52,387 nt of DNA from a virus (lineage: Duplodnaviria > Caudoviricetes), in IMG/VR virus record IMGVR_UViG_3300043449_001060, positions 1-52,387 of that record; one strand, written 5' to 3'. Both the position numbers and the translations under genes were made by a program. Within the stretch, counting starts at the first letter, position 1. Each line of letters opens with the position of its first letter. Below the pieces are notes generated by a model. The model did not search any database. It was not told where the DNA came from and saw only the letters and a list, made by a program, of their open reading frames with translations. This document shows positions 727-49,107 of the stretch, in pieces.

Positions 727-727
727 A

Positions 728-29742: not shown

Positions 29743-29785
29743 AATATATTAAAATTTTTTAAGTTTAATAAACTTATAAAATTTA
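29743..29785 (-). promoter_or_regulatory. Putative promoter box (TTAATATATT variant) with adjacent near-palindromes
   Basis: Plus-strand AATATATTAA at 29743-29752, 19 nt from the ATG at 29723. TAAACTTATAAAATTTA at 29769-29785. Perfect inverted repeat TAAGTTT-AAT-AAACTTA at 29760-29776. Confidence 0.5.
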
Positions 29786-32614
29786 GAATGTAAAAGGATA
29801 AATACTATCTGCATATACAAAACCACCCTCATCCATATATCCTCCATACTTTTGTTGAGGTACACCATACTGTGCATTTATTACTGCTAATGCATCATCA
29901 TCTGCAGTGCTACCACTTTGATTTTTATATGCTTTTTCAGCAGCTGCAATTGCTTCGGTATTGTTAAATCCTTTACTTAAATAATACTGTAAAAATTCAT
30001 CATAACTTTTTGTACCACCTGTTTGAGGTTTAATTCTTTTACCAAACTCAAATCCTGGCATACCACCTGTTTCAGGTAATACAGAGTATTGTGGATATAA
30101 GGCATTCAATGCAGCTGTCTTAGCTCTATTAGTAATTGCATTAGCATAATAATTTCTTAGCTGATTTCTCATTGCAAGCTTAGCATTATCATACTGTTGA
30201 TTAGCAATTGTATTTTGATCATATAGTTTAGATTGTGCAGCTTGATTTGCAAGAGCTTCTTGGTTTCTTACGTCAACAGATTTAAACTCAAACTGATCAG
30301 CAATATTAACATTAGCATTGTTAAATCTAGCGAGAGTATCTGCAGCTTGTTTTGCACCGGTACCTTGAATACTTGACGCTCTAGCAGAAAGTTGTTGTGG
30401 TCCGGCAAATTGCGCTAATGCTTGTGATGCAATGTTAGCTTGTTCTGACTGTTGCGCAAGCTCTCTAGTTGGATCTAAGAACGTAGGTCTTGGTTCTTCA
30501 AGGTCTACTAATGGAGAATATGGCATATACTTATTGATACCCATTAAATCTCCAAATGCACCAGCTGTTTTAATGGTATCTTGTAACCACCAATTAGTAG
30601 GTTTTTCTTGTGGTGGTTGACATGGCAAACATTTTTTAGTTGCTGGATCATATCCACATGGACATTTTTTGTCATCAGGACAAGGACAATTACCATCTTT
30701 ATCTCTTACTACTGGTTTACCAGATTCATCATTACATGGACATGGTTGATCTTTAGGAGGTATTTCTGAGAACATAAGATCCTCATAGTTTGATATCTGC
30801 CCTGCAGTAGTATTAGTATAGTACGCATCAATAGGAGAAATATCAGTAACTGCTTGACCAGTTTCATCATTATATCCTCTTTGAAGATTACCTCTAAAGT
30901 TTAGTAATCTTACCATGTCATCTTCATTAGTAATTTTACCTTCATTGAAGTCTTTTACTAATTGATTATAACCTTGGAATGTTGCTTGTTGTAGTAATGC
31001 TTTTTTCTCAGCTGCAGTTCCTTTTGCTTGAGCTGGCATTTCTAAACCAATGTTTTTAAATGCCGTATCAAGATCTGGTGCAGTTCTTTGCATTTCCTGG
31101 TACTTGGCATTTATTTCTGCATCAGTATAAGAACTTCCATCTGGTTTTTTAAGGGTTTTCATTATATCCTTAAAGCCACGATTATCTCCTGAACCATTAC
31201 CAGTACTTTCAAAAGATCTTAATTTACCATTAGCATCTTTATATAAGAAAGATTCATTTCCAGAAGCTGCAAGTTTTAAGTTTCTTTCTTGGTGCTCTAA
31301 GAAGTTCTTTACAATTTCCTCATCAGATAATTGAGAAGCATCAAGTGTTCCATAACTTCTACCAACAACACCTTTTTTAGATCTATAAAATTCTTGATTT
31401 TGTATAGCTTTTCTAGTAGCATCTGCAAATAACTTAGCAGTTGCTGGATCCTTTAATGCAGTTTCCATTGCATAGTATCTAGATGCAACAGCAGCATTAT
31501 TATTCCATTTAGTTACATCTCCTGTATATCCAGCTGGAGCTTTATACTCAGCTTTTATTTCAGTATATTTTCCATTTGGTTCTTGTACCCAAATTTGTTG
31601 ACCATTATCTTTTGCTTTTAAGTAAGCTTTTTTAAGAGCTAATTGATATGCAGCATTATCTGCATAATCAGATCTTTTTATAATTTGGCCTTTAGGTGGT
31701 TCTCCTCCATCAGGATATTCATCTAGTTCTCCACCATCTTCATACCACTCTTTAGTTCTACCCATGTAGTTCATAGGATTAGCTCCCATAGGCATACCAT
31801 ATTCAGCATAAGGCATATCATAACCACCTATCATCATACCATATTCTGCCATAGGTGGGAGCATTTGTTCTTCACCTTGAGGCATCATATCTTCTTGCAT
31901 CATTTCTTGATCCTCATATGCCATCATATCTTCTTGATCAGGGGATGCTGGTGCTTGTGGTTCTGGAAGTTGTGGTGGAAGAAGTTGTTCTTCTTCAATA
32001 CCATTAGCTTCAAGATATGGTAGAGCCATAACAGGAATACCTTGTGGAAATCCTTTTTTAGATTCTTGAGCAAGAGCTAGTGCACCCAATTTCATATTGT
32101 AATTGCGTATCATTAACTCTGCAGTTTTTCTATCTATATTATCTGAATTAGGGTCTTGAAGAATTTTTCTATATTTATCAATATCATATTGCTTAGCTAA
32201 TTCAGCTGGAGTGTAACCTTTATTACCTTTACCTTTTTTCATAGGCTTATTGAACATCTGTAAGATATTCTCATCATTTATTTTCATTGAATTAGTATCA
32301 CTGAAAATAAAACTATCTTCTGGTAACTTTAAAGGAACCCCACCTTCAGAGTGACGTGGGCCTTTTATAACTTTGTGCTCTGGAAAGTTATCTCCATTGA
32401 GATCACCATAAACAGTTTCACCACCCTCTGCTTCAAGATTTGCTTCATCTCTTGGTACAGCAGTGATATATTTGCTTATTTCCATATCAGGCACCCCAAT
32501 ATAATGATTGTAGTCTGCGCCACCAAAGCCAGCAACATCATTTTTAAGAGAACCATTTACTTGGTAACCAGTTCTAGCTTGCGGCAATTTTTTAATTCTT
32601 ACTTTACGAAACAT
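29783..32614 (-). CDS. Putative virion cargo protein (943 aa) with GG motifs and a CPC-rich cluster
   Basis: N-terminal 'NLEAEGGETV...GPRHSEGGVP...IFSD' domain, M/Q/E/P-rich linker, YEDGG/YPDGG/QKYGG/MDEGG motifs, 8-Cys cluster at 30620-30742, Q/N/A-rich helical C-terminus. Confidence 0.6.
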   Translation of the reverse strand: MFRKVRIKKLPQARTGYQVNGSLKNDVAGFGGADYNHYIGVPDMEISKYITAVPRDEANLEAEGGETVYGDLNGDNFPEHKVIKGPRHSEGGVPLKLPEDSFIFSDTNSMKINDENILQMFNKPMKKGKGNKGYTPAELAKQYDIDKYRKILQDPNSDNIDRKTAELMIRNYNMKLGALALAQESKKGFPQGIPVMALPYLEANGIEEEQLLPPQLPEPQAPASPDQEDMMAYEDQEMMQEDMMPQGEEQMLPPMAEYGMMIGGYDMPYAEYGMPMGANPMNYMGRTKEWYEDGGELDEYPDGGEPPKGQIIKRSDYADNAAYQLALKKAYLKAKDNGQQIWVQEPNGKYTEIKAEYKAPAGYTGDVTKWNNNAAVASRYYAMETALKDPATAKLFADATRKAIQNQEFYRSKKGVVGRSYGTLDASQLSDEEIVKNFLEHQERNLKLAASGNESFLYKDANGKLRSFESTGNGSGDNRGFKDIMKTLKKPDGSSYTDAEINAKYQEMQRTAPDLDTAFKNIGLEMPAQAKGTAAEKKALLQQATFQGYNQLVKDFNEGKITNEDDMVRLLNFRGNLQRGYNDETGQAVTDISPIDAYYTNTTAGQISNYEDLMFSEIPPKDQPCPCNDESGKPVVRDKDGNCPCPDDKKCPCGYDPATKKCLPCQPPQEKPTNWWLQDTIKTAGAFGDLMGINKYMPYSPLVDLEEPRPTFLDPTRELAQQSEQANIASQALAQFAGPQQLSARASSIQGTGAKQAADTLARFNNANVNIADQFEFKSVDVRNQEALANQAAQSKLYDQNTIANQQYDNAKLAMRNQLRNYYANAITNRAKTAALNALYPQYSVLPETGGMPGFEFGKRIKPQTGGTKSYDEFLQYYLSKGFNNTEAIAAAEKAYKNQSGSTADDDALAVINAQYGVPQQKYGGYMDEGGFVYADSIYPFTF

Positions 32615-32623
32615 GTGACAAAA

Positions 32624-35563
32624 TTATAAAAATTCAATTTCACCTCCGGCAGCCATAAATTCTTGGATCTGCTCATCAGTCATGTACATTACATCTTCTT
32701 CATTTGGATCAGTCATAGGACCTCCAAACTGTTTTGATCTACCTAATCTATTTGAACCTTGTTGGTCAAATCTATATGAACCTTGGTTTACTTCCCAGTC
32801 ACCTCTATCCTTTCTTGCTTTAACACCGTAAAGCTTCATAGGATTAAAGTTTTGTTCATACATTTGACGCTCTTGTTCTCTCTGTTCTTTTCTACCAGCC
32901 AGACCTAATCCAAAGTTGGCAGCAGAATTAAACATGTTAAGTGCTGCTTCTGGATCAACCGTTCTAACATCTTCTCTTTGTCTATTTACTTGAACTAAAG
33001 TTTTACCTTTAATTGGATCAGGCATTTTTGGAGCTGTAGTAGATTTAGTAGCTTGATACTCTTCTACATTTTCAGGTTCAATATTAATTTGTTTTGGTTG
33101 CTGAATAGCTGGACCAGGCACTTCAGTAGATTGAAAATTAGACCAAAAGCTAGAAGGTTGTAAGTTTGTATTACCTGCTGTATTAACAGTAAAATCTACT
33201 TCTGTTTGTCCTTCTAATGCAGGATTAGATGTATATGACACTGGAGTATTTTCTAAACCTTCAAAAGCCATAGGAAGTCTACCACCTCTTCTCATCATTG
33301 GAGGAGGAGTATACATACCTTTTTCAATTCTTCTATAGAAATCAAAGTTTTCATCTTCTGGAGATTGTTCATATTCTGACTCACCTCCCATTTGATAACC
33401 TTCTTTTTCTGCCCTAGCTAATTGTCTTTCAGTTTGTCTTTCACCTTTATTGATAGCCATTCTAGCTCTGATTCCTAAATCACTATAATCATCACCACCT
33501 TGTATTTCCTGTTGTGATGGTTTTTGTAACATAGGATGTTGACTTAGATCTACATTAGAACCGTCATCTTCTGCTAAATAATAGTCTGTCCATTGCTTAG
33601 GTGCTCCAAGAATTCCTCTTTTAGTTACATCAGAAAAAACTAACGGGGCTCCACTCATTGAACCAGAATAAATAGCATCTGAATTATAAATAGTAGGCAT
33701 ACCCATTTGTTGAGCATAACTACCTTCATAATCAATAAATCTATTAATAGGGATTAAGTTATCTCTTAACATAGAATTTTGCGCTCTCCTTACTCTTCTT
33801 GCCTGTGCTTTTGTTGGACCTCCTTTTTTAGCTTGCTCAACTGTATTCATGGGTTGATGAAAAATATCAGAAGCTTGACTATACATACTTAAATGATGCA
33901 TAGGATTTTCTGGATCTTCATCAGGATTGGGAAACATCATTCCACCATCTTGATACTGACCCATATCAGTAAAGTAAGGGTCATTAACATTCTTTGCTTC
34001 TTCAGGAAAATCATTTCCACCATAAACAAATTTTGTTAAGTTTGGTAAAGATGGATCTACAAATCCACCATATTGACCACCAGATGCATAACCTTGGATA
34101 AGATCATTTGCACTAGGAACATCTTTTGGATCACCAGGAACTTGTAAACTTACTTGAGTTTCATTTACAGTTACTTGAGCATTAGGATCATTCTCAATGT
34201 TATTCTTAAGAGTTGCTTCTTCTGCTTGTTGTTCTGCAGTACCTTTAGATGCTTGCGGATATAGGATTCTATATTTTTTAGGTCTTCCAAAAAATCCTGT
34301 TTCATAAACATCAATCATTGGCATTAATGGTTGATCTTGTTGAGTTGCAGGTAAATTAGCTAAATCAGAAAAATATTTTTCTAATGTAGGAACATCAATA
34401 GTTTCAAAACTTTGTTGCATAAAAGGCTGAAACTTATTGTAACTATTCATAGGAATATTGCCAAAGTCTGATGGATACATTCCTTCAACTCCTAATAATC
34501 TATTAGTTCTTTCAATAAGGTTTCTATACTTTCTTTTAGCTTTCTTCTGACCACCTCTACGCATTTGGTCTTCACTCATTGCTTGATCTATCTGCATTTG
34601 TTGTTCTTGTGCAGGATCCCCTTGAGGCACCGGAGATAGAATTTGATCTAATAAAGGATCTTGAGTTTCTTTTAATTTTTCAAACCACTCATCTATCTTA
34701 ACTTTCTTAGCAGTATTACCAACAGCATCAATAAAGTTTGTTTTCTTTTTCTTTACGGTACCTGTTAAGTCATCAGTTTGTTTTGCAATACCGGCATCAA
34801 CAACTTCATCTTCTTGCATTCCACCAGCTTGCTTCTTTAGTAAGTTCATTACATTCTTTGCAAACTTTTTCTTTTGACTACCGCCATATTTTGCAGTAGG
34901 AGTAGACATATCTGGTAATTCAAGACTATCACTAGCTAATGGACTATATGGTAGGTAGTAAGCTTCTAGTCCAGGAAAGTTTAGATTCTGTGTACCAACA
35001 GTATTTTCAACTAATGCATCTAAACTAAATTTTCCATCTAGAGTAGTTGTTTCTTCTTCCTCAACTTCTGTACCATCAGAGTTTTCATAGAGAGATGCAT
35101 AACTTGTTTGTTGACCACCATCTTGAAAACCAAATATTTCTTCCGTACTATTTGCATCTTCTTCTTCAGCCATGTCAGCAGCAGATGTATCCATAGCTGC
35201 AGCCATACTTTGTTGACGGTATTGATCCATTTGTTGTTGAGCAGCTGCATCTTGTTCATTTGCCATGAGCGCTTTCTCTTGCTCCATAGCTTGAATTTCT
35301 GCAGCATCTTTTTGTTCTGCTTGATCTAAAGCATCTTCTTCAAGTTCACCAGCTTCCATCATATACTTAACCACAGATGAAACTAATTGCATAGCAAGTT
35401 TCTGATCCATCTTACGTGCAATAAGTGATTCATAGATATCTTGTGGCGTCTGACCTCTTTTAATAGCCTGTTGAACGGAAGTAGCCATTCTAGCATACAT
35501 CTCATTCTGCTCTGTACCTCCGCCCATCTGAGCTTTATAAAGTGGCATATTGGATTTTTTCAT
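32624..35563 (-). CDS. Putative virion cargo protein (979 aa), low-complexity, with ~14 xxxGG motifs
   Basis: Q/M/E/P-rich and Cys-free. Contains AQMGG, FQDGG, AKYGG, KQAGG, MRRGG (x2), YASGG, GQYGG, FVYGG, YQDGG, AKKGG, YQMGG, KQFGG, MAAGG. Confidence 0.6.
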   Translation of the reverse strand: MKKSNMPLYKAQMGGGTEQNEMYARMATSVQQAIKRGQTPQDIYESLIARKMDQKLAMQLVSSVVKYMMEAGELEEDALDQAEQKDAAEIQAMEQEKALMANEQDAAAQQQMDQYRQQSMAAAMDTSAADMAEEEDANSTEEIFGFQDGGQQTSYASLYENSDGTEVEEEETTTLDGKFSLDALVENTVGTQNLNFPGLEAYYLPYSPLASDSLELPDMSTPTAKYGGSQKKKFAKNVMNLLKKQAGGMQEDEVVDAGIAKQTDDLTGTVKKKKTNFIDAVGNTAKKVKIDEWFEKLKETQDPLLDQILSPVPQGDPAQEQQMQIDQAMSEDQMRRGGQKKAKRKYRNLIERTNRLLGVEGMYPSDFGNIPMNSYNKFQPFMQQSFETIDVPTLEKYFSDLANLPATQQDQPLMPMIDVYETGFFGRPKKYRILYPQASKGTAEQQAEEATLKNNIENDPNAQVTVNETQVSLQVPGDPKDVPSANDLIQGYASGGQYGGFVDPSLPNLTKFVYGGNDFPEEAKNVNDPYFTDMGQYQDGGMMFPNPDEDPENPMHHLSMYSQASDIFHQPMNTVEQAKKGGPTKAQARRVRRAQNSMLRDNLIPINRFIDYEGSYAQQMGMPTIYNSDAIYSGSMSGAPLVFSDVTKRGILGAPKQWTDYYLAEDDGSNVDLSQHPMLQKPSQQEIQGGDDYSDLGIRARMAINKGERQTERQLARAEKEGYQMGGESEYEQSPEDENFDFYRRIEKGMYTPPPMMRRGGRLPMAFEGLENTPVSYTSNPALEGQTEVDFTVNTAGNTNLQPSSFWSNFQSTEVPGPAIQQPKQINIEPENVEEYQATKSTTAPKMPDPIKGKTLVQVNRQREDVRTVDPEAALNMFNSAANFGLGLAGRKEQREQERQMYEQNFNPMKLYGVKARKDRGDWEVNQGSYRFDQQGSNRLGRSKQFGGPMTDPNEEDVMYMTDEQIQEFMAAGGEIEFL

Positions 35564-35581
35564 TTTATACCTTATATATTA

Positions 35582-35624
35582 AATATACTAATTTTAAATT
35601 TATTGGGTAAACCTTAAAAGTTTA
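35582..35624 (-). promoter_or_regulatory. Putative promoter box AATTAGTATATT with a 17-bp near-palindrome
   Basis: Plus-strand AATATACTAATT at 35582-35593, 18 nt from the ATG at 35563. TAAACCTTAAAAGTTTA at 35608-35624. Confidence 0.55.
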
Positions 35625-38600
35625 GGAACATCCCCACCTTTCTTTCTTAAAATAAAAACTGGTAGTCTATTATCCATACTTATATCATAATCTAATCTTG
35701 GTCCTTGAACAAATCCTGCCTTAGGAATACCTTGATCATTAAATTGTTTTGATTGACTTTTCCAATAATCTTCTGCTCTATACCTAGTAACTGGTAGTCC
35801 GGTAACGGGGTCCACTAATGTGGTTGAAGCAAAATGTTGTTTTGTTCCAATTCCACCTCTAGTATCTTTAATACCATGATGTACACCTCTATAAAGTGCT
35901 TCTGCAAATCTATTGTTATTATTTCTTTGTAATAAAGCAATTTCTTCTGCGGCTTTTGTATTAGCTTTTTTAGTTAGTGATTTAACAACAATAGGATTTT
36001 TTCTATCTGATGCATTTGTAATTTTATTTAACTCTTCATCTAAGTATCTTTTAGCTAATGCATCTTGAGCTTTATCCCAATTTTTAAAACCAGAAGCTTT
36101 TAAGTTATAACCATGATATTTAGTACTTAGACCTGTTGATCCAATTTGACTGAATGTTACTCCATTATACACACCTGGATCAAATTTTAAAGTACCAATT
36201 ACATTACCATCTTTATCTACCATAGACTTTGCTCTTTTTTCTGATGTTACAATTGTAATTTTTTCAATTTCATCTGGATTTAATCCTGCTGCACGAAGTT
36301 CTTGAGCATATTCAGTTCTTAACCATTGAGTTGCTCTTAAGTCTTCAAGTTTATTTTGAATATCCATATGAACAGGATTACTAGAATTTTTTGGAATTTG
36401 AGAAAAAGCTTCTTCATATGCAGCTAATTCTTCAGCAAGTTCATCATTATCTATAATAACTTTTTTATCTACTACTTTTGGTAACTTAGGATCTAAAGTT
36501 CTATTATACTCTACCGTTCCTGTTGTTTGTGATTTATTAGAATATCTTGTTTTTTCAATTTTATCTTTTGATTTTTTAGATATATTTAACATACCTAAGT
36601 CATCTTCATTACCTTTTAATTGTGGTGAAAGAGTTTGTCTATTTGCAAAATCTAAAGCTGGTGCATTAGGATTAGGTGTGTTATATTTTGTTATAAATGT
36701 ATAATCATCCAACACTTGATTCATTCCAATTTTTATTGCTTGATCTGAAATGCCAGAATTGTTAAATAAAAACTCAATATCATTTAATCCATAACCATAA
36801 TTATTTCTAAGAACATCATCTAAAGTTGCATCTGGAATTGCCATTAATTCATTTAATGCTTCATTTCTTGAAAGCATACTTCCAGTATATGGTTTATCAG
36901 GATTAGTAGCTGCTATTTCCTTGAAGAAATCAAAATCTTCATACATATCAGATGTAGGTTTTACAGCATCTTTGAGCCCACTTAATAATTCATTATAAAC
37001 TTCTCTATTAATATTACCATTTGCATATTGATTACGCAGTCTATTAACAAAATCAATTGGATCATTAGCATCTCTTAATTGAGCTTCTAATGTCATACGT
37101 GATCTATCTGGTCTACGTCTTATTGCTTCTCTAGTAGCCTCACTAAATTTAACTGGAGGAGTGCCCGGTTTTATATTACTATACACTTGTGATGTTCTAA
37201 TGGGAGCAGGTAAATTACTTCCTGTATATTCTGTTACACCTGGCGTTGGTCTTGTTGTATCAAATGAACCTGTAAGTCTTTGGTTCATATTTTGTGCAGC
37301 AGTTGCTCCAGCATTTAAAGCTACCTCATCAGGATTTAAAAATTGACGTACTCTTTCAGCTGTCTGTGCTGGATCATCAATCATCTCAGCATCTAATCTA
37401 CGTTGTTGTTGTGCAGCAAGAGCTTCTTCCACTTGTTGGTTATGAAAATTATCAATTTGATTTGTAAGAAGATCTCTTTCATCTATTGCTGCTTGAAAAT
37501 ATGGTGAATTTGTATTACCCTCATTTCTTAATCCTTGTATAATCCTATCTACTTCTGTTCTTTGATCATACAAGTTTTCTATTTGAGATACAGCTTCTCT
37601 TGTTAATAAAGAAGATTCTGAAGATCTATAACTATCTATAGCTCTTCGTAATTCTTGCATTGAATTTAATCCCGGAGTAGAAAGTGCAAGTGGTTTAAAC
37701 TGAGTAGGGGTAAATTCTGATATTATATTTTTACCTGACAACTGTTGAAGAGGAGTTAATCTTTCTCCTTTCATTAAAGCACTTAATGCACCTTTTGATC
37801 CTATTACCTCAGGTGCAATAAAATCTAATGCAGTCATGCCTACTTGATTTACTGCAGCTCTAATATCTTCCGTCTTACCAGTTTGACCAGCTTTATATAA
37901 TGCTTTGGCTGTTGTAGGTAAAGAAAGAGTACCTGATGCAACACCAGTAGCCCCAGCAAGAGTTCCTATATCTGTAGCACCTAATGCACCTAGATTAACT
38001 TGTTTGCCCATTAATGAATTTAATGCACCGGGAGCTCTAGTTAATATAGCTGTTTTTAATAATCCTTCTCCAAATTCTTTTGCCGTACCAAGTAAGTTAC
38101 CTTGTCTTGCATATACTGTCGCATCTGCTGCAGATGAAAAAGGGTTGATTAGATTAACCATATTATTCAATCCGCTATTATCATATCCAGTTTCTTTTCT
38201 ATAATATGCATTTAATGGGTTTCTTGGATCTCTTAGAATGTTAGCTCTATCTGGTAAGTATTGATCTCCCCAAATTGCTTCTTCAGTAACGTTAATAGGG
38301 TCAGCTAAAAAACTTCTTGTTACATCTCCAGCTTTACCTAGTATAGATGATTGATTCCATTTCTTATTTACTTGGTTTAAACGAGACTGATCTAATCTTT
38401 TTTGGAAATCTTTCTTAGTCATTTCCTCAATCATTAACTGTTGTAATGATTTTGGATTTGCAGAGTTTGCATTTTGTGGACTAAGATACTTTGCAGTAAC
38501 GCCCATATCTCTTGCTGCTCCAGAAGTAATTAATCTTTGAGCTTCCTCCTGTAACTTTTCAGGATACTTCAATGATTCTACTAAACTAGGTTGATCTACA

Positions 38601-41600
38601 AAAGAAGGTTTTGGAATAAATGGTTGAACAACTCCAGTTGCATCAGATACATTACCTCTTGGAACATTTCTTTCAATAGGTTGTGAAGGCTTAACATTTT
38701 TAGATGCTTTAACTAACTGTTCTGCATTCATTCTTCCAGGAGCACTTTGAACTACAGGAGAACCAACTGGTTTACCTTCCCCATAGTTAAGCTTTTGTAA
38801 CGTCATGGTATCAGTTACTGGGGCTCCAGATGTAAATGTCCAAGCACCTTTAGAATCTTTTTTATATTGATTACCATTTAGTTCTACAATACCACCATCT
38901 TGATATTGTTGATTTTTTGCATCTTGAAACTTATTATACTGTTGTTTTAAATTTACAACATCACTTACAACTGAGAATGGAGCTAATTTAGTTCTAGGAC
39001 TTTTTAAAGGAGACAATATATCACTAATAACACTAATTTGATTACTTTGATTATTAGGATCTTTTGTGTAATCATAGGCATCAGATGCATTTAATAAATA
39101 GTTTATACCTGTTTGAACTGGCCCAGGCATAAAATATTTACCTATTGTAAGCATTGAATTTCCAATAGATTCAACTTGATCTAATCTTGGTGTGTTCTTT
39201 AATTTTTCTTTATTTTGTGCTTCTAAATTCACTATCTCTTTAAAAATCTCAGCTCTCTTAGACATATCAGATATATTTGAAGGTCCTTGGCCATCATTTT
39301 GAGAATCAAAATATTGTAATTTTTTTCTTAACGCATTTAGTTTCTGAAGTGTAGGATCAACTTTTGGTTTATTAGTAACTCTAATTGCAGGATACTCCTG
39401 CACATATTGTGCCCATTCTTTACTAGGCATTTTTTCCGAATCTTTTTTAGTAAACCTTCTTTTTTTAGGTTCGCCACCATCTTGATATTGTTGTGGTGGT
39501 AATTCTACTGCAGTAGGTCCTTGTAAGAAATTAGGTTGAACTACACTTGTTGCATCTGGTACATTAGCTAACGGTACAGTAACTTCTTTCATTGGATCAT
39601 ATGGTTTTGGAATCTCCAAATTATTGATCACATTAGCTGTCCATTCATTTCTTTTAGTAAGAGGTTTACCTGCACCAAATCTTTTGTGCTCCGCTAACAT
39701 CTTTTCTTTGTTACCTTCTACAGTGGCTTTAACAAAACTTGGGAATCCCGAAAGAGTTCCTAAGTTGTATTGATAGTCTACTAATAGCATTTGTGAATCT
39801 TGTGGGAGATTGTCAAATGTACCGGGACCGTATTTTTTATCTACCTGTTTTTTTGCAAGCGCTTGATTTCTTAATACATCTTGCTCTTGTAATTTTAAAG
39901 CTTGATCTTCTGTAATACCTCTTTTTAATGCAGAGTCATTAGGCGTAAGTTTATGACCATAGGCAATTGTATCTGCACCACCTTCCACACTTGCATGTGG
40001 ATACCACATACCGTTTTTATATCCTTTTCTAATACTATTCTCTTGCATTCTTAAATCTGCAAGATACCTTTTCATATGTTCAGGATCTAAGTCTTTTGGA
40101 GATGCTACACCACCTGGTGCAAATTGTTTTATAATTCTACCATACTTACCCATTTGAGGTTGAGTAGTATCCTGGCCTTTATCTTGATTTTTAGAAATAT
40201 TGTTTAGCATCCACAATATTTCTTCATCTGTATAAACATCTTTTAATTGTTTTAATGCATCAAAACCTTCTTTAGATGGTGATTCAAAATCTGTATTAAG
40301 TAATTTCTTAAAAGTTTTAGGAGTTACTTTTTCTGTAAATGGATCGTATATACCCATTTGTTTTGCTTGATATCTTATGTCATTTAATCTTGCTCTTGTC
40401 TCAGTATCTTCTCCTACATAGTCATACCATTCTTTTTGATCTTTTAAAAATTCTTGAAAAGCAGGATGATTTTTTGCTTGTAAATCTTCTTTCTTTTCTT
40501 GAGCAGATTGTCTTGCAAATTCAGGAGAAGAAAACCAATCTTTTGCTCTATGTTTATTTATCCATAACTGATCTTTATCAGGAATAGCTCTACGACCAAC
40601 TAATGGATGAGGTCTATCAGTTGAATGTGACCATTCATGAGGTAACAAACCTCTAACACCAAAACCATGTGGTAGTACTGTTATATCACCAGTATCACTC
40701 ATTGAATATCCTCCAGTTCTTGGCATATCCTTTGGTTGATCATGGTGAACTCGAGTAATTGGATTTTCAAGATTATGCCTTCTTGCTGCATCAACATTAC
40801 TCCAATTTTCAGGATCACTTTTTTGAAGCATTTCCAAATATCTTGGAGAATTATGATATTCCTTATAATATTTCTTTATTTTGTTACTAGTATTTTTAAC
40901 AGCTTTTTCAAGTGCTGCTCTTTGCTGTTTAATTACTTGTCGTCTATGTTCAAATGGATCTTTGCCAAGAAAGCTTGGTTGACGTTCTTGATAAATATTA
41001 TTTACTGCTGTTGATTCACTAACCTGTTTATATCTAGGATCATTAGCATATGATCTATTTTGAGCATTTGGACGAACAACAATATCTGCTTCTTCTTGAA
41101 CATACTGACCCCATTCATCTTTTGGAAATGCCTGAGCTTCTTCTTCAGTATATCTTCTTTTTTTCCTACCTCGTTCTCCACCATTTTGAAACTCCTCTTT
41201 TCTGTAAGATTCATCTGGAGTTATTTTTTTATAATTCTCTGCAAAATACATTGCATCTTCAGGGTTATCAAATCTTATAGCTTCTGCAGATTCAGGACCA
41301 TAGTCTCCTAACATAAGCTGACCATTAACATCTTGTATTAATGGTACAGCATAATTATCCATAGACGCCATATAATGAGTACCTGTTATACCATTACCAA
41401 AGTCATAAGGTTGATCTGGTGCAACTACCATTCTTTGTGCAGCAGGATTACCATGCATTTGTGCATACGCCAATCTTGCTTTCATCATAGCATCATTAGC
41501 TGCATCTATTTCTTCTTGTGAAGTTATTCCACCATCTTGAAAATACTTTGCATTTGGATGAAAGAATTTTTTCTTTTTAGACTTAGGTTTTTTAAACAAA

Positions 41601-41941
41601 GCAGACTCTCTAAATAACTCTCCTATACCTTCTAAACTTCTAGTATATTTTTTAGAATTTATTCCGCCACCTTTTCTCATTTGTGGATATTCATCAACAT
41701 ACTTTGCTCCTGGAAACTTATAATCTTGTCCTGGTTGCATCATTTGTTTTTGGCCATTATCTGCTATACCAAGCACTGGATAACCAACCCCTTTCATTGT
41801 AATATCACTTGAAGGTATTCTAGTAGGTTTACCTGGATATTTATACTGACCCTGTGGATCAGTAATAATGTCCTTTGAATATGGATTTGGCTTATTGTAT
41901 TTTCCCAAATCAATTTTAGAAAGTAATCTTTTATTATACAT
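35600..41941 (-). CDS. Modular putative virion protein (2113 aa) with zincin-like and lysozyme (GH24-like) domains
   Basis: HEWSH at 40625-40639 with downstream 'ETRAR'. Muramidase-like 'QENS...DTIAYGHKL...GITEDQA...LVDYQYNLG' at ~39620-40060. Modules are separated by xxxGG motifs. Confidence 0.72.
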   Translation of the reverse strand: MYNKRLLSKIDLGKYNKPNPYSKDIITDPQGQYKYPGKPTRIPSSDITMKGVGYPVLGIADNGQKQMMQPGQDYKFPGAKYVDEYPQMRKGGGINSKKYTRSLEGIGELFRESALFKKPKSKKKKFFHPNAKYFQDGGITSQEEIDAANDAMMKARLAYAQMHGNPAAQRMVVAPDQPYDFGNGITGTHYMASMDNYAVPLIQDVNGQLMLGDYGPESAEAIRFDNPEDAMYFAENYKKITPDESYRKEEFQNGGERGRKKRRYTEEEAQAFPKDEWGQYVQEEADIVVRPNAQNRSYANDPRYKQVSESTAVNNIYQERQPSFLGKDPFEHRRQVIKQQRAALEKAVKNTSNKIKKYYKEYHNSPRYLEMLQKSDPENWSNVDAARRHNLENPITRVHHDQPKDMPRTGGYSMSDTGDITVLPHGFGVRGLLPHEWSHSTDRPHPLVGRRAIPDKDQLWINKHRAKDWFSSPEFARQSAQEKKEDLQAKNHPAFQEFLKDQKEWYDYVGEDTETRARLNDIRYQAKQMGIYDPFTEKVTPKTFKKLLNTDFESPSKEGFDALKQLKDVYTDEEILWMLNNISKNQDKGQDTTQPQMGKYGRIIKQFAPGGVASPKDLDPEHMKRYLADLRMQENSIRKGYKNGMWYPHASVEGGADTIAYGHKLTPNDSALKRGITEDQALKLQEQDVLRNQALAKKQVDKKYGPGTFDNLPQDSQMLLVDYQYNLGTLSGFPSFVKATVEGNKEKMLAEHKRFGAGKPLTKRNEWTANVINNLEIPKPYDPMKEVTVPLANVPDATSVVQPNFLQGPTAVELPPQQYQDGGEPKKRRFTKKDSEKMPSKEWAQYVQEYPAIRVTNKPKVDPTLQKLNALRKKLQYFDSQNDGQGPSNISDMSKRAEIFKEIVNLEAQNKEKLKNTPRLDQVESIGNSMLTIGKYFMPGPVQTGINYLLNASDAYDYTKDPNNQSNQISVISDILSPLKSPRTKLAPFSVVSDVVNLKQQYNKFQDAKNQQYQDGGIVELNGNQYKKDSKGAWTFTSGAPVTDTMTLQKLNYGEGKPVGSPVVQSAPGRMNAEQLVKASKNVKPSQPIERNVPRGNVSDATGVVQPFIPKPSFVDQPSLVESLKYPEKLQEEAQRLITSGAARDMGVTAKYLSPQNANSANPKSLQQLMIEEMTKKDFQKRLDQSRLNQVNKKWNQSSILGKAGDVTRSFLADPINVTEEAIWGDQYLPDRANILRDPRNPLNAYYRKETGYDNSGLNNMVNLINPFSSAADATVYARQGNLLGTAKEFGEGLLKTAILTRAPGALNSLMGKQVNLGALGATDIGTLAGATGVASGTLSLPTTAKALYKAGQTGKTEDIRAAVNQVGMTALDFIAPEVIGSKGALSALMKGERLTPLQQLSGKNIISEFTPTQFKPLALSTPGLNSMQELRRAIDSYRSSESSLLTREAVSQIENLYDQRTEVDRIIQGLRNEGNTNSPYFQAAIDERDLLTNQIDNFHNQQVEEALAAQQQRRLDAEMIDDPAQTAERVRQFLNPDEVALNAGATAAQNMNQRLTGSFDTTRPTPGVTEYTGSNLPAPIRTSQVYSNIKPGTPPVKFSEATREAIRRRPDRSRMTLEAQLRDANDPIDFVNRLRNQYANGNINREVYNELLSGLKDAVKPTSDMYEDFDFFKEIAATNPDKPYTGSMLSRNEALNELMAIPDATLDDVLRNNYGYGLNDIEFLFNNSGISDQAIKIGMNQVLDDYTFITKYNTPNPNAPALDFANRQTLSPQLKGNEDDLGMLNISKKSKDKIEKTRYSNKSQTTGTVEYNRTLDPKLPKVVDKKVIIDNDELAEELAAYEEAFSQIPKNSSNPVHMDIQNKLEDLRATQWLRTEYAQELRAAGLNPDEIEKITIVTSEKRAKSMVDKDGNVIGTLKFDPGVYNGVTFSQIGSTGLSTKYHGYNLKASGFKNWDKAQDALAKRYLDEELNKITNASDRKNPIVVKSLTKKANTKAAEEIALLQRNNNNRFAEALYRGVHHGIKDTRGGIGTKQHFASTTLVDPVTGLPVTRYRAEDYWKSQSKQFNDQGIPKAGFVQGPRLDYDISMDNRLPVFILRKKGGDVPKLLRFTQ
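38892..39493. repeat. Two identical 20-nt copies of CCACCATCTTGATATTGTTG (encoding QQYQDGG on the minus strand)
   Basis: Copies at 38892-38911 and 39474-39493. Shorter CCACCATCTTGA matches at 33942, 35115 and 41529. Confidence 0.85.
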
Positions 41942-44900
41942 TATCTAGGAGAGATTTGATTCTTGGTATTAGTAATTTTAACTATCATGTTGGTATCCGT
42001 AGAAATATCTTTGATAAATCTAATAAAGTTTAAGTAATGTCTAAACTTCTTTCTTTGAGTTTCTGGTTTTTGAAAATCAAGATTAGCTAGATTTAAATCT
42101 TTAATGTATCCATTTGGTTGTGTTATCCAAATAAATCTATCCGCATAGTTACCTTGTAATACTGTTGTTCCAGGAATAACAGGTCCTGTTGGTGGATAGT
42201 CTGATCCAATTGGAAACTCTGATCTATCTCTAGTAATATCCCAGAACTGATTAAATCTATACTTGTTTTCTTCTTTACTAAATAATATATCAAAAGAGGC
42301 TAAGTTAGATTGATTTAGTTTAGGATACTGTTCACTTAATGTAACATTATTCTTAGGGAATATATTTAAATTAAGATATCCAGATACTTGTTCTGAATTA
42401 AATATTAAAGCTCTATCAAAATTAAAGTCAAGTACATGGAATTGGTCAACACAATTATTACGTTCTTTTCTATAAGATTCTAAGATATACTCAACTGATT
42501 TTAATGTCGTAACAGTTTGACCAGTGATAATAGGAAGTTCTATTTCAAATGGATAATTAGTTCCATAGAAATTACAGTAACTACTACAACCACTATTATG
42601 TTTCCATATACCATTAACTTTTGTTGTTAAGAATGTATTCTTAGTTGGAAAAGTTAAATCTGGATGCCAGTCATGGAAAGAAAGAAAGAATTGATTTTTA
42701 GGGTCAAAACTAACTGTCCAAGATGCATTGTCAAAAATTGCTTCATCTCCTAATAAATAAGTTGATCCTGGGAAATTGATATTAGTAAAATAGTCACCCT
42801 TACCTTTATTTTTACCAGAAGTAATTAATGGTACATATTGAATAACATTCTGACCAACAAACTCTTGTTTTAACTTATAGTCTTTCTTTGAAAAGTATAC
42901 AACAGAGTTTTCATTATCATATACAGATTGGCAACCAATACCGGATACTGGATTATCTTGGTATGGGTAATCTGGAAAATCTTCAGTTAGCTTATATGGT
43001 AAAAATTCAGAGAACCACCATTTTAATCCAGCTTGAGAAATTTCTTTTAGACCTCCTCCATATAAGAATATCTTACCTTGGTTTTGTGAGATATAATAAA
43101 TACCTGCTGGTGTACCAATTACAGATAATCTATTTTGAGATGAACCATACTCATATGGTTTATCTGAATTAGAAACTGCTTGAAGCGGTTGACTAAATAA
43201 TCCACCATCACCAATAGTTACTTTAGTGCCTAGTTCTGTTTGTAAAGTGTCAACACCTTGATACATTAATGGGCTATCATTTTTAAATGTAATAATGATA
43301 CCACTTTTATTTATTGACTTAACTGCAGAAATTTGAGACTTAAATTCTTTATAGTTATTTACAAGAAAAATAAACCAACTATCTTTTGAGGACTCTTCTT
43401 GTTGTGGCAATGAATAAATAATCCTATCTGGATAATATGTGTAACAAAGTTTTGCAACTTTAGGATTATAATATCTACTTTGTAAATTACCTGAAGAAAA
43501 ATACTGATTAAATAACTTAGTAATACTTAATGAATAATCATATCTCCATATGTTTCCTCTTGAAATAATTTGTGGATCAGTATCAAACATAGATACTAAA
43601 TCAGTATATCTGTAAGGATTATAATGTTTTTCATACTCAAGTTCCCCATCAGTTCTAAAGTCTACAAGAACTTCTGATTCTACAAAGAAATCTCTTACAC
43701 CTGAATTAGCAAGATAAAAGTATGAGTCATTAACTCTAAATACACCAGGATAATTACCAACTGAGTCATTACTAAACTCATAGTTTTTATTATCAAGTTT
43801 ATAAAACTTTGTTGGAAATGCACCTGTACCTGGTTGCATTGATGGTCCAAAACTATTTGGAATTAAATCTTGTACATCATACTTTTTAGAGTTTACCCAG
43901 AATCTAGCATCTGGAATCATATTGTATAACTTGTAATTATATTCAAAACCATCTGGCTGATCATATAACCAGTTATAAAAGAAAAGCATTGAGTTTTTTT
44001 CAGTGTATCTATTAATAAAGATATCTCCTCCAAAAAAGATTGGTGTTCTATATATTTGATTTACTGAATATGGTGTTCCTGGATCAGTAGGACATGATGT
44101 ATAAAAACCTGTATTAATTATATAGTCACTTAACTTTTGCTCACATGGAGTAATTGGAATTTGTTTTATAGAATCTAACTGACCGTATAAGTTTCTAATT
44201 CTATATTTCAAACCTGCATAATGACTGGCAATTTGAGTTGAGAAAGGAGAACTTGGATCTTCCCATGTTGGATAGTTAGCAATTGGATTAAGAGTACCAT
44301 TAGATGTAATATCTGTATTACCATCAAAAGCTGAAAGTGTAACTAATGAATTATCCTTAAATGCTGTAATCTCATACGGTCCAGTACTTGCTCCATTTGG
44401 ATAAGTAATTGGATTATAGTATGGTCCGGTTAAGGTTCTTAGAGTTACTGTATCTCCTCGTTGTAAGTTATTAATTGTATATCTTACATACTGACCTGTA
44501 GTATTTAATTGATATGCCGGTACTTGTTGAATATTATCTCTAATATAGAATGAATCCTGAAGCTTAAATCTTTGAATTTGTGTTCTATTAAATGCTCCCC
44601 ACCTGTTGTAAAATCCATGACCAATACACTGTAATGCATATTGTTGATATGGAAGAAATGTATAGAATGCGCTAATTGCTAAATTAGCTCCTTCTGAAAA
44701 ATAAAATGATAATCTATTAAGAGCTCCTAATTGTGAAAGAACAGGAGGCAAATATGCACTATCTGGAAATTCAATAGTTCCAGTAATTGACATTGGAATA
44801 ATACCTGATAATGCTAATGCTGCTGGGTTGTTAACAGTATTTGTTAAGTTAAATAATGCTGCACTTGTTGAAGTAGCATCATAACCAATACTAGCTGCAG

Positions 44901-47386: not shown

Positions 47387-48445
47387 TTATATTACTCTAT
47401 TGCGTCCTAAAACCCCACGATATCCCCAGTTAGGTGAGAAACTTTCAAACATGTTGTAATACTTACCGTACATGGCTTTTCTATTTGTCCACCACATTTC
47501 TTGAAGCTCTCTAAAGTTTGGAGTATTAACTACACTCAATGCTTGATTTCTAGCAGCTCTAAGTCTTTGTTCAATAAGTTGCATTCTTTGAGCAACATCT
47601 TCTCCATTTAAATAAAGATTTTCCATGATTCTAGCTTTTAATGCATACTCATAATATTCATTAATAAGATCATGATCTGGAACAAGAAGATCACCATTCT
47701 CATCTTCCATTTGACCTTGATAATTTAAATATACTTTACCAGTATCAAATGTTGTAAATAAAAATCCTCCTTTAATCCATCCTTCATTTGGAGTATTCCA
47801 ATAAAGATTAGGACAGTCACATTCTATATTTTGACTTGTCTTCATTCTTAGTGGAAATAACTGTGTATAAACTCTTGTAGCTCCAGGATTACTAATTACT
47901 TGAACAAGTTCATACTTATCTCCTTTACAGTTCATAAAGACTCTTGGTCTTGTACAAACATCTCCATAAGGTGCAAGTGGATCATATTCTGTAGGAATAG
48001 GATTAGGAGCACATGTAGCAGGACATGTATTGTCTGGACATGCTGCAGTATAGTTACATGGATTTGCGTTGCATACAGAGCAGTTTACAGTTTGTGGTGC
48101 ACATACATCAACTGTGGCTGGTGTTTCCACATAAGGAACTTCTTGAATATTTGTACCACCAGCCCAGCCATCATAACCAATATGTTCAGTAAAAGTACCA
48201 CAGATAAAAGCAAAATTAAATGTATAAAAGTCATCAGGTAATTTTACTTTACCATGACATACATCTAAAATTACTTCCTTTTGTTGATTAATTCTTAAGC
48301 CAAGATCATAGTTAAGTTTCTTGACTAATTTAATTAACTGTTGAGGCTCTATCATATTTTCTAGAGCAAAAGTATTTAAGTCAACTGTTACATCTTCTAA
48401 CAATTGATTAAAGGTTCTATATCTAAGAGTGTAATTAAAATCCAT
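47387..48445 (-). CDS. Tail tubular / ring (adaptor) protein
   Basis: 352 aa. 'KVKLPDDFY', 'FTTFDTGKVYLNYQGQMEDENGDLLVPDHDLINEYYEYALK' resemble crAss-like Ttub/ring proteins. Sits just before the muzzle gene and carries a Cys-rich insertion. Confidence 0.7.
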   Translation of the reverse strand: MDFNYTLRYRTFNQLLEDVTVDLNTFALENMIEPQQLIKLVKKLNYDLGLRINQQKEVILDVCHGKVKLPDDFYTFNFAFICGTFTEHIGYDGWAGGTNIQEVPYVETPATVDVCAPQTVNCSVCNANPCNYTAACPDNTCPATCAPNPIPTEYDPLAPYGDVCTRPRVFMNCKGDKYELVQVISNPGATRVYTQLFPLRMKTSQNIECDCPNLYWNTPNEGWIKGGFLFTTFDTGKVYLNYQGQMEDENGDLLVPDHDLINEYYEYALKARIMENLYLNGEDVAQRMQLIEQRLRAARNQALSVVNTPNFRELQEMWWTNRKAMYGKYYNMFESFSPNWGYRGVLGRNRVI

Positions 48446-49107
48446 TATCTAAGTATATTTTGACTATCATCTAATCCATCAGTTGGGACTTGCATAGTTA
48501 TGGTTAACTCTTTTACTGTATATTGCTCTATTTCAGAAAATAAATATTCTGGAAATGGTAATGGTTGATCTTGTTTAATTAAACAATCATCTGTTGTACA
48601 GGTATCTACTTGACCTTCAAATATTGCTTCCATGCGAACAGCATCCCAGTCTACATTAGGAATATATAAATAGCCATCTAAATACCAGAAATAAATATTA
48701 CGGTTATATTTAAATGTTGTAGTTTTAGTCATAGAAACCCAAGTACCTGGATCTGTACGGAATAATTCTATAGTACCATCTATTGAAGATACTGTACGTA
48801 TAATAGGACCAAATGTGCCATTTAAAATTGTAGGAAGCTTTTCTTTTGATCTTTTAAAGTAACAACCTGAGTATACACCAATACATCCTGCTTCTACTTT
48901 ATCAACATCAATTAACTCAAGATAAGGTAGTACTTGAAAAATTGAACTGATCTTCATTAATTTAAATTGGTTATCTTCTCTTTTCAAGAGTGTCTGCCCA
49001 TACTTAGTTAATAAAAAGTATATAGTTCTATCTGTAAGAAACGGATCTTCTTTTGCAGCTTTAAGTGTATTTCTTACCCTAGAAATTGCTTCACCAATTG
49101 TTGTCAT
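48445..49107 (-). CDS. Putative tail ring protein
   Basis: 220 aa, translationally coupled at both ends (ATGA and TAATG overlaps). Helical termini around a beta core ('RSKEKLP', 'YFWYLDGYLYIP', 'PFPEYL'). Confidence 0.55.
   Translation of the reverse strand: MTTIGEAISRVRNTLKAAKEDPFLTDRTIYFLLTKYGQTLLKREDNQFKLMKISSIFQVLPYLELIDVDKVEAGCIGVYSGCYFKRSKEKLPTILNGTFGPIIRTVSSIDGTIELFRTDPGTWVSMTKTTTFKYNRNIYFWYLDGYLYIPNVDWDAVRMEAIFEGQVDTCTTDDCLIKQDQPLPFPEYLFSEIEQYTVKELTITMQVPTDGLDDSQNILR

Follow-up and report, generated by a model that had tools for sequence, protein, structure and literature searches.

A conserved hydrophobic-Q-x-G-G motif in linkers of crAss-like phage cargo proteins

Crassvirales have been described as the most abundant human gut viruses, and the source of that description leaves open how they pack, arrange and eject their large cargo load (PMC10172136). 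The proteins of the ΦcrAss001 cargo block were found in virions by mass spectrometry, and one of them, C1 (gp45), has been described as a chain that is unfolded in part and has ordered stations in both the tail and the capsid (Bayfield et al. 2023, PMC10172136). Cryo-electron microscopy (cryo-EM) revealed two segments of gp45: residues 214-245 in the tail barrel and residues 425-552 on the portal (PMC10172136). Here, we analyzed a viral DNA of 52,387 nucleotides (IMG/VR record IMGVR_UViG_3300043449_001060, positions 1 to 52,387; hereafter the window), in which three adjacent genes encode proteins of 2113, 979 and 943 amino acids that carry a recurrent short motif ending in Gly-Gly. The window shares with ΦcrAss001 its gene order, running through ring proteins, muzzle, cargo proteins and RNA-polymerase-associated giants. 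Pfam matches identified genes for ring protein 1, ring protein 2 and the muzzle protein directly upstream of the cargo genes and, because of these matches and a DFDID motif in a 3523-residue protein, we assigned the window to a Crassvirales-type tail and cargo block. By position and synteny with ΦcrAss001, the three motif proteins are the cargo proteins that precede the polymerase-associated giants, and the same synteny supports a role for them as ejected virion cargo. In both phages the cargo proteins are largely unstructured. The three genes are as follows.

35600-41941, minus strand: open reading frame (ORF) of the 2113-residue modular ('polyvalent') cargo protein, the first gene after the muzzle gene.
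32624-35563, minus strand: ORF of the 979-residue cargo protein, richest in the motif and mostly low-confidence or disordered.
29783-32614, minus strand: ORF of the 943-residue cargo protein, with a conserved N-terminal domain (residues 1-200), a Met/Gly-rich linker and a conserved C-terminal two thirds.

The 2113-residue protein also resembles the polyvalent proteins, in which varying effector domains share one polypeptide (Iyer, Burroughs, Anand, de Souza & Aravind 2017, PMC5512222); its family also carries a module with an HExxH motif. The polyvalent-protein paper predicts autoproteolytic release of domains, with zincin-like peptidases embedded in the phage proteins as the processing enzymes (PMC5512222). 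A zincin-like domain and likely cleavage have similarly been proposed for the fused crAss RNA-polymerase polyprotein (bioRxiv 10.1101/2020.03.07.982082). In their available text, neither paper names a cleavage site and the former names no junction motif (PMC5512222); its Pfam family MPTase-PolyVal had no match here. A SET match (PF00856) lies near the N-terminus of many relatives of the 2113-residue protein (P0227, P0231, P0292 and others), and one relative has ART-PolyVal and YkuD; such effector domains are unusual in an ejection protein of a phage.

The motif consists of a hydrophobic residue (Y, F or M, sometimes L), then Q, K, R or A, any residue and Gly-Gly, with a register variant [KQ]-[YF]-G-G. 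An earlier note on this DNA had described about 25 copies of the pattern [YFMAK]-[QKRAE]-x-G-G in the three proteins. All of the coordinates it listed were correct, on the minus strand, and the single-glycine variants LPQARTG, LPMAFEG, MAEYG and MGKYG were all found. The total of about 25, however, is reached only with loose variants, and RKKGG, YPDGG, QKYGG and MDEGG fall outside the note's own pattern. Its observation that every protein has a copy near its C-terminus proved accurate: RKKGG, MAAGG and MDEGG end 10, 5 and 12 residues from the end of the 2113-, 979- and 943-residue proteins, respectively. The copies are listed here with the boundaries of high-scoring segment pairs (HSPs) from BLAST or with the number of relatives that retain the glycine pair (GG); P5 and P4 denote the first two positions of the five-residue motif.

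41666-41680, minus strand: MRKGG, residues 88-92 of the 2113-residue protein; HSP boundaries are clustered at residues 80-99.
41528-41542, minus strand: FQDGG, residues 134-138 of the 2113-residue protein; HSP boundaries at residues 120-149, and FQDGG is retained in two relatives, G001 and G003.
41177-41191, minus strand: FQNGG, residues 251-255 of the 2113-residue protein, followed by a basic stretch; HSP ends at residues 240-259.
40109-40123, minus strand: FAPGG, residues 607-611 of the 2113-residue protein, in the linker between a zincin-like and a lysozyme-like module and closely preceded by MGKYG; HSP boundaries at residues 590-619.
39473-39487, minus strand: YQDGG, residues 819-823 of the 2113-residue protein, directly past the lysozyme-like module; 31 HSPs end in the bin of residues 820-829.
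38891-38905, minus strand: YQDGG, residues 1013-1017 of the 2113-residue protein, at the start of its C-terminal half; 16 HSPs start at residues 1010-1019.
35633-35647, minus strand: RKKGG, the loose variant 10 residues before the C-terminus of the 2113-residue protein.
35516-35533, minus strand: AQMGGG, residues 11-16, near the N-terminus of the 979-residue protein; in 54 sequences G14 is invariant and G15 and G16 are at least 90% conserved.
35114-35128, minus strand: FQDGG, residues 146-150 of the 979-residue protein; GG in 37/38 relatives, with F (33) or Y (4) at P5 and Q (34) at P4.
34820-34894, minus strand: AKYGG, a conserved basic helix and KQAGG, residues 224-248 of the 979-residue protein; both GG pairs in 38/38 relatives, with a predicted helix (229-245) between them.
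34550-34564, minus strand: MRRGG, residues 334-338 of the 979-residue protein; GG and P5 Met each in 38/38 relatives.
33941-34078, minus strand: a cluster of GQYGG, FVYGG and YQDGG, residues 496-541 of the 979-residue protein; GG in 38/38, 35/38 and 37/38 relatives.
33281-33397, minus strand: YQMGG (residues 723-727) and a second MRRGG (residues 757-761; 33281-33295), then LPMAFEG, in the 979-residue protein; GG in 24/38 and 38/38 relatives.
32642-32734, minus strand: KQFGG (residues 944-948) and the F-M-A-A-G-G-E-I-E-F-L tail (residues 968-979) of the 979-residue protein; GG in 38/38 relatives at both sites. MAAGG itself is at 32642-32656, and A971, G973 and G974 are invariant in the 54 sequences.
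31703-31837, minus strand: MMIGG, YEDGG and YPDGG, residues 260-304 of the 943-residue protein, within its Met/Gly-rich linker; in its family a GM.[MF]GG position is conserved, and YEDGG and YPDGG are not.
29822-29854, minus strand: QKYGG and MDEGG (the latter at 29822-29836), residues 921-931, near the C-terminus of the 943-residue protein; partly conserved as K[YF]GG..M..GG.

Within the window, we scored enrichment against a composition-based Poisson expectation. The pattern as first described was strongly over-represented in the three proteins, with 19 copies (12, 6 and 1) where 1.98 were expected; as the earlier note had held, the other ten ORFs (12,528 residues) showed no similar enrichment, with 2 copies versus 3.39 expected. 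A strict form, [YFM][QRK]xGG, gave 10 copies versus 0.46 expected in the three proteins: 5 versus 0.18 in the 2113-residue protein, 5 versus 0.14 in the 979-residue protein and none in the 943-residue protein. It was absent from the other ten ORFs (0.81 expected). The narrower [YF]QxGG occurred 7 times in the three proteins against an expectation of 0.12, and the 979-residue protein has 16 GG pairs where 5.7 were expected. The claim that all three proteins are enriched needs qualification. The 943-residue protein alone is not (1 copy of the earlier pattern versus 0.65), but its family is, with 89 copies versus 10.7 across 52 relatives. Since the pattern was defined after the sequence had been seen, P-values from the window are optimistic, and it is the family-level controls that carry weight. 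The motif glycines use ordinary codons, mostly GGT, like the rest of the genes, which rules out a cause at the DNA level such as an internal Shine-Dalgarno-like GGAGG or another nucleotide motif. BLAST self-comparison of the three proteins at E < 0.03 revealed neither longer duplicated repeats nor paralogy among them.

The family-level evidence comes principally from the 979-residue protein. A profile search of 1.84 billion representative sequences returned 699 clusters at E <= 0.001, and statistics were computed on the best 150 representatives, which are mutually less than 50% identical. These 150 sequences hold 534 copies of the motif versus 38.5 expected, a 13.9-fold enrichment, and 148 of them have at least one. 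Among the controls on the same set, the reversed motif was flat (41 versus 38.5; 1.06-fold) and replacing GG with AA or SS gave 0.6-fold, while an aliphatic P5 gave 4.1-fold and an acidic or hydroxyl P4 2.3-fold. A copy lies 3-15 residues from the C-terminus in 113 of the 150. The sequence information resides entirely upstream of the glycine pair: P5, P4 and P3 carry 0.64, 0.74 and 0.48 bits, and P1'-P8' at most 0.16 bits each. At 1850 GG sites in representatives of this family, Q occupies P4 in 37%, and Y, F or M is preferred at P5 or P3.

Individual sites are retained while the sequence around them drifts, a pattern that the earlier note had proposed as a check. In the 979-residue protein, the pairs at 227, 247, 337, 499, 760, 947 and 973 are present in 38/38 relatives, down to ~30% identity, and those at 149 and 540 in 37/38, with poorly conserved surroundings. 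The upstream residues are constrained as well (P5 is Met in 38/38 at 334; Q in 34/37 at 147), and in an alignment of 54 sequences of the family the motif glycines make up 12 of the 21 invariant columns. For the 943-residue protein, 1783 relatives were recovered at E <= 0.001. We also counted copies per family in 327 ORFs from 54 related viral loci. The three cargo families were enriched (979-residue family, 196 observed versus 14.2 expected; 2113-residue family, 143 versus 7.7; 943-residue family, 89 versus 10.7); the counts were 10 versus 6.2 in the muzzle family, 3 versus 7.3 in the family of the 2498-residue protein and 1 versus 5.1 in that of the 1106-residue protein.

Three relatives with 100%-complete genomes (G001, G002 and G003) allowed whole proteomes to be scanned. 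They contain 14, 15 and 27 copies versus ~4 expected, concentrated in the three cargo proteins; the total for G003 is inflated, because this genome appears terminally duplicated and some hits were counted twice. In this 135.9-kb record (L092-L098), the same 909-residue ORF occurs at 8337-11066 and at 130514-133243, and near-identical ORFs of 130 and 131 residues lie at the two ends, probably owing to a terminal repeat or to assembly through a circular permutation. Each of the three genomes also encodes a small basic protein of 121-131 residues with 7-8 GG pairs, of which four in G001 and in G003 and two in G002 belong to strict copies. In G002 the motif recurs in a basic protein of 230 residues, and both basic genes lie between the capsid gene and the ring 3/4 gene; the capsid, portal and terminase proteins of G002 had no copy in the whole-proteome scan. 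The basic head-module ORFs of G002 (L080:14334-15026 and L080:15666-16052) and their equivalents in G001 and G003 bear the motif every 10-30 residues from residue 5 onward. These proteins matched no Pfam or PHROG family and are possibly core or scaffold-like internal proteins.

We next consider where the copies lie relative to predicted structure. An AlphaFold 2 (AF2) model of the 979-residue protein from 54 sequences had a mean predicted local distance difference test (pLDDT) score of 44.9, with 709 of 979 residues below 50, although a low pLDDT is not proof of disorder. All 16 GG pairs are in coil with pLDDT below 50, and several coincide with the end of a helix: helix 229-245 has a pair on either side, helix 339-356 begins past the pair at 337/338 and helix 963-971 stops before the pair at 973/974. 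The earlier note had named two observations that would count against its proposal: no enrichment over a composition-matched shuffle, and motifs lying inside folded domains. The motif is enriched over composition, and its linker copies lie outside folds; three conserved GG pairs that the note did not list, at residues 31, 64 and 91 of the 943-residue protein, are inside the conserved N-terminal domain.

In the 2113-residue family, the copies coincide with the edges of exchangeable modules. Its members contain Amidase_2, lysozyme (PF00959), SET, VanY, SLT, NlpC/P60, YkuD, PG_binding_1 and ART-PolyVal domains in varying order, and the position of a shared module varies from one relative to another. 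Among 460 HSP boundaries internal to the protein, 59% fall within 12 residues of the six motif sites, compared to 13% at random, and none of 5000 random placements matched this value; the relatives are not independent, however, and a conserved island tends to terminate an HSP. In five relatives that we scanned, most catalytic domains recognized by Pfam have a motif copy next to them on one side or both, as in YQEGG-lysozyme-YQMGG and YKSGG-SLT-MKYGG/MDKGG-VanY-MKKGG. One such module of the window protein is the following.

39677-39982, minus strand: lysozyme-like module, residues 654-755 of the 2113-residue protein; Pfam Phage_lysozyme at E 0.0047, below cut-off, with PF00959 above cut-off in relatives.

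The motif is thus real and under selection at the protein level; it is restricted to these protein families, lacks structure and lies where modules meet. The copies FQNGG and YQDGG at residues 251 and 819 of the 2113-residue protein each precede a similar stretch of ~40 residues (41177-41074, about residues 251-290, and 39473-39370, about residues 819-860, minus strand), a basic run followed by P-x-x-E-W-[GA]-Q-Y-V-Q-E; this likeness was seen by eye and was not reported by BLAST self-comparison. Several further copies in the window proteins also precede Lys/Arg runs.

Variants of the motif were found in the cargo of cultured crAss-like phages. In gp45 of ΦcrAss001, A[FY]GG occurs four times versus 0.10 expected, along with FAEGG and FAYGG, and these variants flank both segments seen by cryo-EM. 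The portal-binding domain CARG1 of four Steigviridae orthologues has a GG pair before it and [FY]-[AS]-x-G-G after it, and in three [FY]SAYGG precedes the ring-bound helix. The AKYGG-basic helix-KQAGG unit of the 979-residue protein (residues 224-248) resembles the arrangement in gp45 of [FY]SAYGG and then the ring-bound helix 214-245. The gut-phage variant differs in favoring A or S, not Q, at P4, and the available text of the ΦcrAss001 paper has no mention of the motif or of processing (PMC10172136). Similarly, gp040 of phage phi4:1 (NC_021788.1), encoded by the second gene past the muzzle homologue and annotated as a virion structural protein from tandem mass spectrometry proteomics, has four copies of [YF]QxGG versus 0.04 expected. 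It is a positional analogue only, with no detected homology to the window proteins. When the 979- and 2113-residue proteins (tblastn) and the 13-kb region (megablast) were searched against 50,697 phage records there was no match, and the tblastn search detected no homology of ΦcrAss001 cargo to the window proteins. From the variants in gp45 and gp040, the motif, in one form or another, seems general to crAss-like cargo proteins.

The earlier note had proposed that the motif is a maturation cleavage site or a docking tag. What stands is a selected linker motif in cargo proteins; the evidence does not decide between these alternatives. We tentatively favor the reading that the copies are a set of proteolytic processing sites, which we regard as quite possible though short of probable. 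We prefer it because it fits the position at junctions, the confinement of information to one side, the abundance of copies in small basic proteins and an embedded peptidase-like module. Sequence information on one side alone is what is expected of a site read on one side of the scissile bond. According to this reading, the cargo proteins are arranged like beads on a string, and a protease carried by the phage would cut them at or beside each motif, in the head or after ejection. Cutting would free peptidoglycan hydrolases, helices docking in the tail barrel and short peptides from the termini as individual modules. The leading candidate enzyme would be the zincin-like module of the 2113-residue protein or the HExxH sites of the RNA-polymerase-associated giants. 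We infer that any bond is cut and, likewise, the enzyme, the timing and the side of the motif.

Recurring sites of this kind are familiar. The consensus for maturation proteases is L/I-x-E for T4 gp21, S/A/G-x-E for the phiKZ-like gp175, (M/L/I)-x-G-G|x for adenovirus and G-G|x for pS273R of African swine fever virus (ASFV). Like the motif described here, they are short, degenerate sequences that recur several times in internal virion proteins, often at domain boundaries and near termini, and adenovirus sites similarly have a hydrophobic residue a few positions before Gly-Gly. The analogy to the adenovirus and ASFV proteases drawn in the earlier note amounts to resemblance: the hydrophobic residue is at P5, one position farther from GG than the P4 of the adenovirus consensus, and the capsid protein is without the motif.

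The module that might provide the activity is conserved in its own right.

40184-40924, minus strand: zincin-like metallopeptidase module, residues 340-586 of the 2113-residue protein, with HEWSH at residues 435-439 (40625-40639).

HExxH is present in 41/41 HSPs of this mobile module, down to 27% identity, and in 62/119 relatives of the 2113-residue protein versus 2.1 expected. In 16 sequences, H96, E97, H100, D103, R104 and E175 of the module are invariant; HExxH lies on a predicted helix (93-103), and D103 and E175 are candidate third metal ligands. The AF2 model of the module has a pLDDT of 87.3 and a predicted template modeling score of 0.84, and pLDDT drops below 50 from residue 587, where MGKYG and FAPGG begin. 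In a VIA-align comparison, M13 zinc peptidases filled the five best rows, with Z-scores of 8.6-7.8, although the tool calls Z 7-8 the range typical without a true match. PepO scored 8.6 (root-mean-square deviation 4.3, 181 residues aligned), neprilysin 8.3, ECE-1 7.9, lethal factor 6.9 and PPEP-2 6.6; zinc peptidases and related metallohydrolases make up the majority of the 50 rows shown. Foldseek returned nothing significant for the module (best E 0.93), and a profile of it had 0 matches among PDB sequences. A predicted complex of the module, zinc and residues 518-562 of the 979-residue protein, which contain the YQDGG linker, had a score of 0.01, where the mark is 0.32, and is evidence in neither direction.

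Several observations weigh against processing at these sites. No cleavage has been reported, and the available text of the ΦcrAss001 paper makes no mention of proteolysis, cleavage or a protease (PMC10172136). The ordered portal-bound domain of gp45 (425-552) includes A425-F426-G427-G428 and is continuous across the glycine pair, and this bond is therefore probably intact in the virion. In relatives of the 979-residue protein, Pro directly follows GG in 13/38 at 947 and in 13/14 at 581, and many proteases would not cut with Pro right after the site. Zincins usually read the primed side and prefer a hydrophobic P1', and would thus fit only a cut before the aromatic residue, not one after GG. 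The RNA-polymerase-associated giants, for which cleavage has been proposed in print, lack the motif. G002 and G001 retain it, and their homologues of the 2113-residue protein (425 and 497 residues) have no HExxH. With no copy in the capsid, portal and terminase proteins of G002, a classical scheme in which a prohead protease also trims the capsid is unlikely. The E-I-E-F-L tail after the last GG of the 979-residue protein is more suggestive of a functional peptide than of a leaving group. As for other enzymes, MPTase-PolyVal (PF18818) had no match in five complete relatives or in the 2113-residue protein at E <= 0.01, the HExxH module of this family being a different one, and in five relatives that are 99-100% complete none of C48, S78, ClpP and C39 (PF03412, the peptidase of double-glycine leaders) was found, in a search that did not extend to S77 and S49. 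C5 was likewise absent from five near-complete relatives, a result that is uninformative because the control fired in 0/14 control genomes. G002 has, between its portal and major capsid genes, a 417-residue ORF (L080:10307-11560) without a known family; a scaffold or prohead protease is usually encoded at this place.

A more specific version of the processing reading, in which Φ-Q-x-G-G (Φ, hydrophobic) is the cleavage code of crassvirus cargo and a cargo-embedded zincin-like peptidase cuts both the envelope-acting ejection proteins and the small basic core proteins, is in our judgment doubtful. A variant places the cut ahead of the aromatic residue, where thermolysin- or neprilysin-like enzymes would be expected to cleave. 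Under this version, the virion would hold separate modules, not long chains; the different parts of ΦcrAss001 C1 that are visible in the tail barrel and at the portal would then be fragments apart from one another, and no set of twelve chains would have to thread the portal tunnel.

The foremost rival is a docking or packaging tag, whose copies would bind a site on the inner side of the procapsid, portal, scaffold or tail barrel, with the cargo loaded and positioned by several weak copies acting jointly; we consider this rather unlikely, though a serious alternative. Encapsulin cargo-loading peptides and the T4 capsid-targeting sequence provide precedents: short conserved peptides, sometimes in several copies, in disordered termini of proteins destined for the interior of an HK97-fold shell. 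Most copies in the window differ from these in being internal, at module junctions. The confinement of the motif to cargo proteins and, in relatives, to small basic head-module proteins speaks for such a tag, and the C-terminal copy (113/150), which sits within a conserved 12-residue tail, fits docking better; another copy is near the N-terminus of the 979-residue protein. In ΦcrAss001 and three orthologues, the GG pairs at both CARG1 edges and before the ring-bound helix, with AFGG 425-428 ordered in the cryo-EM model, point the same way. However, the RNA-polymerase-associated giants need packaging too and lack the motif, a tag has no reason to match the boundaries of module shuffling or to flank enzyme domains, and no binding partner for the putative tag was identified.

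Slightly less likely, to our minds, though still a serious alternative, is a purely structural joint, in which GG is a helix-breaking hinge and the aromatic residue or Met a small anchor. Together they would mark off segments that fold or dock on their own, so that the long proteins are stored extended, pass through portal and tail and refold with neither an enzyme nor a dedicated receptor. This would account for copies in coil at helix ends, as at helices 229-245, 339-356 and 963-971 of the 979-residue protein, for copies at module boundaries and for the variants that flank the ordered stations of ΦcrAss001 C1 (PMC10172136). A hinge requires small residues only, however, and leaves unexplained Q at P4, Y, F or M at P5 or P3 and the 0.6-fold representation of AA or SS in place of GG, as well as other giant cargo proteins that are threaded and lack the motif.

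It is highly improbable that the copies act after ejection by binding a periplasmic or envelope component of the host and helping disordered proteins to ratchet across the envelope, as short binding epitopes do in colicin translocation domains. The motif families do carry peptidoglycan-acting domains (lysozyme, amidase, VanY, SLT, NlpC/P60, YkuD and PG_binding_1), and the motif is missing from the polymerase-associated proteins, whose presumed destination is the cytoplasm. This evidence is circumstantial, the small basic head-module proteins with their many copies fit poorly, and conservation from gut Bacteroides phages to the marine phi4:1 would demand a very conserved host target. Finally, a chance or compositional by-product of Gly/Gln/Met-rich low complexity, or of duplicated longer repeats, is vanishingly improbable: the 979- and 943-residue proteins are somewhat Gly-rich (7.7% and 8.1%), GG is mildly enriched in the 943- and 2113-residue proteins and the pattern was defined post hoc, but glycines invariant position by position, the composition-corrected family-level enrichment in 150 diverse relatives with the reversed motif flat, the information profile, the lack of internal repeats or paralogy and the ordinary codons effectively refute it.

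The general kind of element, a set of protease sites or a cargo tag in virion-internal proteins, is already known. What appears to be new is this particular code, together with the logic of its placement at junctions of crAss-like cargo and its spread through the group; we found no description of the motif in the literature covered, which excluded subscription-only papers and supplementary files. As the most conserved feature of a fast-evolving, disordered protein family, the motif makes cargo packing and ejection experimentally addressable. In uncultured crAss-like phages, it could also serve in practice as a sequence marker by which envelope-acting ejected proteins, and the boundaries of their domains, are recognized.

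CheckV estimates that the record, a fragment, is ~44% complete, and the portal gene lies outside the window. The minus strand carries every large ORF, including the structural genes upstream of the cargo.

47387-48445, minus strand: ring protein 1 gene; PF24228, E 1.3e-9.
48445-49107, minus strand: ring protein 2 gene; PF25702, E 1.9e-25.
41941-47385, minus strand: muzzle protein gene; PF25731 crAss_MUZ, E 1.3e-29, with 0 copies of the strict motif versus 0.18 expected.

The nearest cultured relatives, namely Cellulophaga phages phi4:1 and phi17:2, a Leptolyngbya phage and a crAss phage of the epsilon type, are distant, and their muzzle proteins are all ~25% identical to that of the window. 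The three motif proteins matched no Pfam or PHROG family above threshold, and a sequence search against PDB chains gave no relevant match. None of the three has a clear transmembrane segment; the top 19-residue Kyte-Doolittle mean, 1.13, belongs to a Gly/Ala-rich stretch at residue 1317 of the 2113-residue protein. Scans for tRNAs, promoters and terminators revealed nothing notable.

We also considered whether the 943-residue protein's N-terminal domain is CARG1. An ESM Atlas hit (rank 6, score 0.94, 183 shared features) is a lead only, confirmed neither by hidden Markov model (HMM) search nor by hhalign (probability 0.2). The CARG1 HMM (PF25725 crAss_CARG1) had no match at E <= 10 in this domain or in the six-frame translation of the window, and scored gp45 itself at 2.3e-66. 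Residues 624-665 of the same protein (30620-30745, minus strand) are Cys-rich, with C-P-C and C-x-x-C repeats and ~10 Cys in 42 residues, partly conserved in relatives; this stretch is possibly a metal-binding or disulfide knot.

At the left end of the window (1-1909), two plus-strand genes, with a weak DUF4127 match and DUF932, oppose the structural block and probably mark the boundary to another module. Among the giants, the 3523-residue protein (8328-18899, minus strand) has DFDID at residue 2481, a motif of the RNA-polymerase catalytic type that resembles DFDVD of ΦcrAss001 gp50, and HEAWH at residue 988. The 1977-residue protein (2390-8323, minus strand) has HEFSH at residue 203 and a LysM domain at residues 1650-1676. 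The HExxH motifs of both proteins occur at similar positions in the three complete relatives.

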